Both the position numbers and the translations under genes were made by a program. The notes beneath the pieces are model-generated. The model did not search any database. It saw only the letters and a list, made by a program, of their open reading frames with translations, and had not been told where the DNA came from. From assembly GCF_048403405.1 (NCBI RefSeq), contig NZ_CP183129.1: a stretch of 64,000 bases of DNA. One strand, 5' to 3'. The stretch comes from Escherichia coli (GTDB taxonomy: Bacteria; Pseudomonadota; Gammaproteobacteria; Enterobacterales; Enterobacteriaceae). Positions 22,711 through 62,528 of the stretch are shown here, piece after piece (within the stretch, counting starts at the first letter, position 1; each line of letters opens with the position of its first letter).

Positions 22711-23115
22711 ATGCAAGCGCGAGTGAAGTGGGTCGAAGGGTTAACTTTTCTGGGCGAATCCGCCTCTGGTCTCCAGATTTTAATGGACGGCAACTCAGGC
22801 GATAAAGCACCAAGTCCGATGGAAATGGTGTTGATGGCGGCGGGGGGTTGCAGTGCCATCGATGTGGTTTCTATTCTGCAAAAAGGGCGTCAGGATGTGG
22901 TCGATTGTGAAGTAAAATTGACCTCTGAACGCCGCGAAGAGGCACCACGCCTGTTTACGCACATTAATCTGCATTTTATCGTCACCGGTCGCGACCTGAA
23001 AGACGCAGCGGTTGCGCGTGCGGTTGATCTCTCTGCCGAGAAATATTGTTCAGTAGCGTTGATGCTGGAAAAAGCGGTGAATATTACTCACTCGTATGAA
23101 GTGGTTGCCGCGTGA
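22711..23115 (+). CDS. yhfA: OsmC-family protein YhfA
   Basis: 134 aa ORF. Confidence 0.85.
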   Translation: MQARVKWVEGLTFLGESASGLQILMDGNSGDKAPSPMEMVLMAAGGCSAIDVVSILQKGRQDVVDCEVKLTSERREEAPRLFTHINLHFIVTGRDLKDAAVARAVDLSAEKYCSVALMLEKAVNITHSYEVVAA

Positions 23116-31110: not shown

Positions 31111-31925
31111 ATGAAATCACTGTTTAAAGTAACGCTGCTGGGGCGACCACAATGGCCGTTGCCCTGCATGCACCGATCACTTTTGCTGCTGAAGCTGCAA
31201 AACCTGCTACAACTGCTGACAGCAAAGCAGCGTTCAAAAATGACGATCAGAAATCAGCTTATGCACTGGGTGCTTCGCTGGGTCGTTACATGGAAAACTC
31301 TCTTAAAGAACAAGAAAAACTGGGCATCAAACTGGATAAAGATCAGCTGATCGCTGGTGTTCAGGATGCATTTGCTGATAAGAGCAAACTCTCCGACCAA
31401 GAGATCGAACAGACACTGCAAGCATTCGAAGCTCGCGTGAAGTCTTCTGCTCAGGCGAAGATGGAAAAAGACGCGGCAGATAACGAAGCGAAAGGTAAAG
31501 AGTACCGCGAGAAATTTGCCAAAGAGAAAGGTGTGAAAACCTCTTCAACTGGTCTGGTTTATCAGGTAGTCGAAGCCGGTAAAGGCGAAGCACCGAAAGA
31601 CAGCGATACTGTTGTCGTGAACTACAAAGGTACGCTGATCGACGGTAAAGAGTTCGACAACTCTTACACCCGTGGTGAACCGCTCTCTTTCCGTCTGGAC
31701 GGTGTTATTCCGGGTTGGACAGAAGGTCTGAAGAACATCAAGAAAGGCGGTAAGATCAAACTGGTTATTCCACCAGAACTGGCTTACGGCAAAGCGGGTG
31801 TTCCGGGGATCCCACCGAATTCTACCCTGGTGTTTGACGTAGAGCTGCTGGATGTGAAACCAGCGCCGAAGGCTGATGCAAAGCCGGAAGCTGATGCGAA
31901 AGCCGCAGATTCTGCTAAAAAATAA
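31111..31925 (+). pseudogene. fkpA: periplasmic FKBP-type PPIase FkpA, reading frame broken in the signal-peptide region
   Basis: MKSLFKVTLL in frame 1 from 31111; rest of protein (MAVALHAPITFAAEAAK..., 257 aa) in another frame from 31152; junction is GGGG run 31140-31143. Confidence 0.7.
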
Positions 31926-31932
31926 GCATTAA

Positions 31933-31966
31933 GAACCGCCGCCTGACCAGGCGGCGGTTTTTTTAT
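31933..31966 (+). terminator. rho-independent terminator after fkpA
   Basis: Hairpin ccgccgcc-tgaccag-gcggcgg followed by T7. Confidence 0.65.
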
Positions 31967-38764: not shown

Positions 38765-38836
38765 AGCCCACGCTTATTTTTTGACATCCCGCTAGCCCCA
38801 TCTACGCTCTAATAGTGGAAGCGGAGGGACTATAAA

Positions 38837-39313
38837 ATGAAAGGTGATGTTAAAATCATAAATTATCTCAATAAACTATTGGGAAATGAGCTTGTCGCAA
38901 TCAATCAGTATTTTCTCCATGCCCGGATGTTTAAAAACTGGGGCCTGATGCGTCTCAATGACGTCGAATACCATGAATCTATCGATGAGATGAAACACGC
39001 TGATAAATATATCGAGCGTATTTTGTTTTTAGAAGGAATCCCCAACTTACAGGATTTAGGCAAACTGGGGATTGGTGAAGATGTCGAGGAGATGCTGCAA
39101 TCCGACCTGCGATTAGAACTGGAAGGCGCTAAGGATCTCCGTGAGGCTATCGCGTATGCCGACAGCGTTCATGACTATGTTAGCCGTGATATGATGATCG
39201 AGATCCTTGCCGATGAAGAAGGTCATATTGACTGGCTCGAAACTGAGCTGGATCTCATCGGTAAAATCGGTCTACAAAATTACCTGCAATCACAAATAAA
39301 AGTTAAAGATTAA
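38837..39313 (+). CDS. bfr: bacterioferritin
   Basis: 158 aa ferritin-like. Confidence 0.95.
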
Positions 39314-39777
39314 CGGCCTGCCAGCAAACTATCCCAGCCTACAACGAAACCCGCAGCCGCCAGAAATGGCCCAAACGGCAGCGGGTTTTTTAATGACTCT
39401 TTTCCTCTCATGAGCAGACCAATAACTACGGCTCCGCAAGCGAATGAGGCAGCAAGGAAAACCAGTCGTGGCAAGAAGGTCCATGTATGCCAGGCACCAA
39501 GGGCGGCGAGAAACTTCACATCACCATAGCCTAATCCTTCTTTATGACGCAGTATGCGATACCCCCAGTAAATGACAGCGAATGTGCCGTAACCAATAAT
39601 CGCCCCCCATAACGCATCGGCTAAACCGTCAGGATTACAAACCTGATAGAACAAAAGACCTGACCAGAGTAACGGGCACGTAAATCTGTCAGGTAACAAG
39701 CCATGCTTTGCATCCCAGAAAAAAAGTAGGGCTGATAAACAAGCGTACAAAATCAGAAAGGGAAGGGTAGCGTCCAT
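39310..39777 (-). CDS. short prepilin (leader) peptidase, A24 family
   Basis: 155 aa hydrophobic ORF with [14 protein letters not shown] motif; 3' end overlaps bfr stop; corresponds to the position of gspO/hopD. Confidence 0.7.
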
Positions 39778-39950
39778 AAAACATCCTCTGTAATTGGAGT
39801 ATCACCATCGAATAACTCCGGATGCTCAGCAACAGAGAAATCGCTGATTTGTTAACCTGGTTCCGGTGAAAAACGCTATCTTCACAACTTTACAAATTTC
39901 GTGGAATACAGCTCGCAATCTGCGCGTTGCGATTAATTTCTACCCGATGC

Positions 39951-39978
39951 TTGCGTCAGGCTCAGATTTGCGTATAAT
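39951..39978 (+). promoter_or_regulatory. S10 operon promoter
   Basis: TTGCGT (39951-39956), 16 bp spacer, TATAAT (39973-39978), GC-rich discriminator. Confidence 0.55.
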
Positions 39979-40467
<489 letters not shown>

Positions 40468-40487: not shown

Positions 40488-42883
<2,396 letters not shown>

Positions 42884-45136: not shown

Positions 45137-45168
45137 TAAACGGCTCAGAAATGAGCCGTTTATTTTTC
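45137..45168 (+). terminator. S10 operon terminator
   Basis: Hairpin aacggctca-gaaa-tgagccgtt followed by a T-run. Confidence 0.65.
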
Positions 45169-62009: not shown

Positions 62010-62528
62010 GTGAATAATAACCTGCAAGGAGACGCTATCGCAGCTGCGATAGATGTTCTCAATGAAGAACGTGTCATCGCCTATCCAACGGAAGCCGTTT
62101 TCGGTGTTGGGTGTGATCCTGATAGCGAAATAGCAGTGATGAGACTGTTGGAGTTAAAACAGCGTCCGGTTGATAAGGGGCTGATTTTAATCGCAGCAAA
62201 TTACGAGCAGCTTAAACCCTATATTGATGACACCATGCTGACTGATGCGCAGCGTGAAACCATTTTTTCCCGCTGGCCAGGTCCTGTCACCTTTGTCTTT
62301 CCCGCGCCTGCGACAACACCGCGCTGGTTGACGGGCCGCTTTGATTCGCTTGCTGTACGAGTCACCGACCATCCGTTGGTGGTTGCTTTGTGCCAGGCTT
62401 ATGGTAAACCGCTGGTTTCTACCAGTGCCAACTTGAGTGGATTGCCACCTTGTCGAACAGTAGACGAAGTTCGCGCACAATTTGGCGCGGCGTTCCCGGT
62501 TGTGCCTGGTGAAACGGGGGGCGTTTAA
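62010..62528 (+). CDS. tsaC: threonylcarbamoyl-AMP synthase TsaC, apparently C-terminally truncated by a -1 frameshift
   Basis: GTG start, YrdC-family; frame ends at 62528 after a G6 run, the +1-shifted frame continues 17 codons to a TAA at 62579-62581 just before the aroE ATG. Confidence 0.8.

Follow-up and report, generated by a model that had tools for sequence, protein, structure and literature searches.

The fkpA locus in the assembled sequence

We analysed a 64 kb window of the Escherichia coli chromosome, which extends from gph/trpS through aroE and the yrdB/yrdA overlap and contains fkpA between slyX and yheO. The gene order slyD-slyX-fkpA-yheO-tusDCB is found in TUM14771, 4621, OX030728, MS 69-1 and MG1655, and the window is collinear with all of them. 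Translation of the open reading frames in the window reveals that fkpA is split by two extra G residues in the assembled sequence. The native start codon (ATG 31111, plus strand) opens a frame of 79 amino acids (31111–31350; MKSLFKVTLLGRPQW...) that encodes MKSLFKVTLL, is out of frame past codon 10 (continuing GRPQWPLPC...), and ends at a stop at 31350. Codons 1–10 align with, and are the same as, those of the relatives. A second open reading frame of 257 amino acids, also on the plus strand but in another frame (31152–31925; MAVALHAPITFAAEAAK..., with its stop at 31925), comprises FkpA residues 14–270. It begins at the internal Met14 without the n-region of the signal peptide, and its product carries the Pfam domains PF01346 (FKBP_N, for dimerisation and chaperone activity) and PF00254 (FKBP_C, the PPIase domain), as read from an identical product. 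The Sec signal peptide is thus not in frame with the mature protein, since codons 1–10 and 14–270 lie in different frames.

Between ATG 31111 and ATG 31152 there is a single run of four G residues (GGGG, 31140–31143, plus strand) where the relatives have GG, and this run is the source of the frame break. The original prediction, made from the sequence of the window alone, had two frames opening at these two ATG codons and meeting at this run, and translation and alignment show this to be exact. It had also placed the break within the signal peptide, leaving an internal ATG with no export signal, which is the arrangement seen in the Met14 open reading frame. Its further proposal, that removal of two G residues would restore one FkpA reading frame, agrees with our computed result: the edited sequence encodes a 270-amino acid protein (MKSLFKVTLLATTMAVALHAP...) that matches WP_000838261.1, the protein annotated as fkpA in close relatives.

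Base-by-base comparison of fkpA with TUM14771 and three further close genomes gave a sole difference, the additional GG at 31140–31141 (relatives CTGCTGGCGACC; window CTGCTGGGGCGACC). Alignment against close relatives had been suggested as a check on the prediction; the four closest genomes (TUM14771, 4621, OX030728 and MS 69-1) all have GG at the site, none has four G residues, and all encode an intact 270-amino acid FkpA.

The gene is followed by an intrinsic terminator (31936–31964, plus strand) consisting of CCGCCGCC, a loop, GGCGGCGG and T7, which is unchanged with respect to TUM14771, 4621 and OX030728. Its T run (31958–31964) has seven T residues in the window and in these three relatives, and eight in the MS 69-1 assembly, a further difference in homopolymer length that may or may not be real.

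The window differs from its closest relatives at four sites

The syntenic 64 kb was rebuilt for TUM14771, 4621, OX030728 and MS 69-1 and aligned base by base with the window, and private differences were polarised using the four relatives. Exactly four were found, three indels and one SNP: an A-to-T change at 22772 (YhfA H21L), the GG insertion at 31140–31141 that breaks the fkpA frame, the loss of one T at 45163 (6T to 5T) in the terminator between rpsQ and rplN, and the loss of one G at 62516 (7G to 6G) that ends TsaC 17 residues early. These four sites are the only differences from OX030728 in 64,000 bases, and all three indels sit in mononucleotide runs. In this interval each relative has between zero and three private SNPs, and the differences between relatives and window are mostly SNPs, with a 1-base indel in MS 69-1 as the one exception. 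Judged from these alignments, three private indels against one private SNP is the reverse of natural E. coli divergence.

Compared with K-12 MG1655, the interval between bfr and rpsJ (window positions ~38800–40150) is missing chiA and the gspA-M cryptic type II secretion cluster, and retains only a prepilin-peptidase gene.

Two of the indels coincide with recurrent assembly errors

The tsaC run (62516–62521, plus strand) has six G residues in the window and seven in the relatives, truncating the protein at GETGGV*, while alignment with the relatives shows that the T run in the rpsQ-rplN terminator (45163–45167, plus strand) has five T residues instead of six. Neither allele is confined to the window. 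Of 5,423 complete genomes, 51 have the 6-G allele; for the 5-T allele the count is 79 of 5,425. At least 28 genomes carry both, against 0.74 expected if the two were independent (hypergeometric P ~3e-40). The carriers are scattered in the phylogeny (O145, APEC, ETEC, bovine, canine and K-12 laboratory strains) and cluster by submission batch. RefSeq labels the tsaC gene of the 6-G genomes 'frameshifted'. As yrdC/tsaC is essential in E. coli (PMC2685093), it is very unlikely that this frameshift is real in the cell.

As a control, 48 kb of the K-12 C600 assembly (CM181231) was compared with MG1655. Only two indels were found, at the same tsaC G-run and T-run sites, and there were no indel errors outside these two hot spots in the 48 kb of the control. 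On the evidence of these comparisons, the 7G-to-6G change in tsaC and the 6T-to-5T change are systematic long-read errors. Their exact match to natural error hot spots rules out planted or random edits as the origin of the two deletions. Since both systematic errors are present, the assembly of the window is demonstrably of the unpolished long-read class: at least two errors per 64 kb were left uncorrected, one of them predicted to inactivate an essential gene, and the prior probability that the window contains another error is therefore substantial. The original prediction had noted that the tsaC anomaly, too, lies in a G-run, as is the case, and had reasoned that this raises the odds of an artefact in fkpA; that reasoning is strengthened by the recurrence of the tsaC and T-run alleles in dozens of unrelated assemblies. 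About 1% of RefSeq 'complete' E. coli genomes carry the same two errors, including a 'frameshifted' essential gene.

The four-G fkpA allele is found only in the window

Queries of 301 and 76 bases across the fkpA site each matched ~5,423 of 5,426 complete E. coli genomes, with best identities of 299/301 and 74/76, i.e. a two-base gap every time. The four-G allele therefore occurs in none of 5,423 complete E. coli genomes, including those which carry the tsaC 6-G or the 5-T allele; neither near-identical genomes nor the wider species have it. A 32-mer over the site had no exact match among JGI metagenome contigs or GTDB representative genomes, and an exact look-up of the 79-amino acid frameshift peptide in a protein collection gave no matches, although overlapping open reading frames of this kind are rarely called. 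The same change is thus not seen at the same site in other error-prone assemblies and, given this lack of recurrence, the fkpA insertion is not a generic basecaller error.

The fkpA insertion and the yhfA SNP share a sequence context

The single private SNP (A to T at 22772, plus-strand coordinate) changes codon 21 of yhfA, which encodes an OsmC family protein, and occurs in none of 5,410 complete genomes. The H21L variant of YhfA is also present on one unrelated 1.5-kb metagenome contig, which is of a different lineage and differs at 13 of 1,466 bases (99.1% identical).

The fkpA insertion and the yhfA SNP occupy the same position in a near-identical 10-mer, CTGG^YGACCA, with 9 of 10 bases matching. 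On the minus strand yhfA reads CTGG[T>A]GACCA, and fkpA reads CTGG[+GG]CGACCA. The window contains three copies of CTGGYGACCA (22767–22776 on the minus strand, 31138–31149 and 42396–42405), of which the third, in rplB, carries no change. When pairs of positions are drawn at random, only 0.8% share at least 9 of 10 bases in a block over both positions, the likeness of the two sites being a post-hoc observation. Inspection by eye showed that the fkpA position lacks Dam (GATC), Dcm (CCWGG) and EcoKI (AACN6GTGC) sites, so a basecalling error there is not accounted for by the standard methylation motifs of E. coli. The shared 10-mer hints at a consensus error that depends on sequence context and possibly on modification; strain-specific modification, a k-mer error or simple coincidence could each account for it. 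More speculatively, a strain-specific DNA modification or a site-specific damage process might target CTGGYGACCA. The argument from the motif is weakened because one private SNP per 64 kb is expected to be real in this group, in which the relatives have zero to three.

Predicted expression from the internal start codon

We computed the Shine-Dalgarno/anti-Shine-Dalgarno duplex at Met14 to be -4.7 kcal/mol, compared with -6.4 kcal/mol at the native start and -1.9 kcal/mol in the wild-type context. The weak Shine-Dalgarno-like GGGG before Met14 is made by the insertion itself, and the start is overlapped by the open reading frame translated from the native ATG. Expression from Met14 would probably be negligible on these features. 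The new N-terminus contains no Lys or Arg; because Lys2 and Lys6 are lost along with half of the signal peptide's hydrophobic core, any Met14 product would stay in the cytoplasm. At the level of sequence, the lesion would be expected to abolish exported FkpA.

Engineered constructs for cytoplasmic expression of FkpA lacking its signal sequence exist, and translation from Met14 would resemble these in yielding FkpA with no functional export signal. The arrangement here differs in the weak Shine-Dalgarno sequence (-4.7 kcal/mol) and in the overlap of the start with the frame opened at the native ATG.

Origin of the insertion

Taken together, these observations make it likely that the GG insertion in fkpA is a residual consensus error of an unpolished long-read assembly, or an equivalent artefact. 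We suggest that it would belong to the same error burden as the two homopolymer under-calls, and that the error may reflect a context of sequence or modification, CTGG^YGACCA, which is peculiar to the strain and which the yhfA SNP shares. Like known residual long-read indel errors, it is a tiny indel in a mononucleotide run that fragments a conserved gene; it is also absent from near-identical genomes and stands beside two recurrent error sites. By comparison, a real private gene-breaking 2-bp insertion would be expected in a few percent of cases in a given 64 kb of such a clone, a figure derived from the SNP and indel counts for a clone approximately one SNP from its nearest relatives.

The counterpoint is that the fkpA change adds two bases to a run of only two G residues, whereas the usual error is the loss of one base from a long homopolymer, and in being non-recurrent it differs further from the known class. 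Insertion errors at runs of length two have nonetheless been described (PMC12007338). The original prediction had left the choice between artefact and knock-out open. Our analysis favours the artefact, with the qualification that it would not be a classical long-homopolymer miscall and that a real private mutation has an appreciable probability.

The main alternative is that a 2-bp GG duplication has produced a genuine null or near-null fkpA allele private to this isolate, which we consider unlikely but deserving of serious attention. Ribosomes starting at the native ATG would then stop at 31350 after 79 amino acids, in the wrong frame; initiation at Met14 is predicted to yield cytoplasmic FkpA with no functional signal peptide; and the cell would have no periplasmic FkpA, with colicin M tolerance as the predicted phenotype. 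In keeping with a real mutation, the insertion is not among the recurrent systematic errors, the C600 control contained no other indel errors in 48 kb, and members of this clade normally have one real private mutation in 64 kb. Loss of the gene can also be borne: strains whose fkpA is deleted, truncated, interrupted by IS1 or ended by a nonsense codon survive and show specific insensitivity to colicin M, and the tolM mutations that give spontaneous tolerance of this colicin are stop or IS1 alleles of fkpA (PMC2615193). The allele described here would be like these tolM/fkpA alleles (Hullmann et al. 2008, PMC2615193) in being a small lesion in a dispensable gene with loss of periplasmic FkpA. 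It would differ in kind, the published alleles being IS1 insertions, a stop codon or missense changes in the mature domains, and this one a putative signal-peptide frameshift.

Genuine 5' lesions of fkpA are, moreover, present in other isolates. An exact look-up of the 257-amino acid Met14 product, in a collection of ~15 billion proteins, found it on 34 contigs across 60 index blocks. We inspected 10 of these places; all had other lesions or contig ends, and none had the GG insertion. The lesions in the first 13 codons comprised a change of the start codon from ATG to ACG, a change of Ser3 from TCA to TAA, a +T frameshift, a -A frameshift (in two assemblies), a small insertion, a Mu-like transposable prophage inserted at about codon 7–8, and a junction with foreign sequence. 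The ATG-to-ACG and TCA-to-TAA changes and the Mu-like insertion are independent of one another and cannot be explained as homopolymer artefacts. These public lesions may reflect recurrent selection for loss of FkpA (e.g. by colicin M), or may be laboratory mutants.

In the ENA metagenome contig NODE_53 (ERZ783432), positions 1–24 are an Illumina adapter-like sequence, CCCTACACGACGCTCTTCCGATCT, fused to fkpA codon 6; the start of this contig is adapter contamination in the deposited assembly.

Several observations count against a genuine null. Uncorrected indel errors can be demonstrated in the same assembly, and the four-G allele is seen in no second genome, contig or metagenome. Real lesions in the first 13 codons are themselves rare, as is evident from the 34 contigs in that collection that carry the 257-amino acid product. 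The coincidence with the yhfA SNP in one 10-mer would also be unexpected for two independent real mutations.

Readings other than an artefact or a genuine null have, all together, a very small share of the probability. In the first of these the four-G allele would be genuine but leaky, or programmed: if tRNA-Gly slipped by -1 on G GGG (31140–31143), before CGA, the frame would be restored and FkpA made at full length, its signal peptide longer by one Gly (MKSLFKVTLLGATTMAVAL...; junction peptide ...VTLLGATTMAVALH...). We regard this as highly improbable. The G GGG sequence permits perfect re-pairing after a -1 shift, CGA is a slowly decoded codon, and the signal peptide of the predicted product would retain its two Lys residues and its hydrophobic core. 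Against this, the site occurs in 0 of 5,423 genomes, the others having an uninterrupted reading frame; slippage of a single tRNA with no stimulation is inefficient, and no stimulatory structure is implied. Slippage at G GGG would be at best a side effect of a real mutation and not a designed mechanism, and programmed frameshifting was rejected because the slippery site lacks any conservation.

The least credible reading, in which a mismatch-repair-deficient mutator generated all three indels as real slippage mutations, draws on their common location in mononucleotide runs, but it was rejected on the lack of private transitions in the 64 kb (transitions dominate mismatch repair-deficient spectra, and the only SNP is an A-to-T transversion), and is further opposed by the identity of the two -1 indels with those of dozens of unrelated assemblies, including K-12, and by the disruption of an essential gene (tsaC) by one of them.

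Implications

Whichever reading holds, fkpA is a well-known gene and the events considered are of known kinds. If the insertion were real, which seems doubtful, a member of a clinical-type E. coli lineage would have lost periplasmic FkpA and would be expected to tolerate colicin M, possibly with a trace of the glycine-extended protein. The isolate would then join the natural fkpA knock-outs already on record, a matter of modest ecological interest that would reveal no new mechanism. If the insertion is an artefact, the finding has value for quality control only: the assembly, in common with the roughly 1% of RefSeq 'complete' E. coli genomes that have the tsaC and T-run errors, requires polishing, and no biological meaning should be read into its pseudogene calls, that of fkpA among them. 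The frame break is present in the given sequence but probably absent in the organism, and the cell would then possess an ordinary, intact 270-amino acid FkpA, a periplasmic FKBP-type PPIase and chaperone with its Sec signal peptide.
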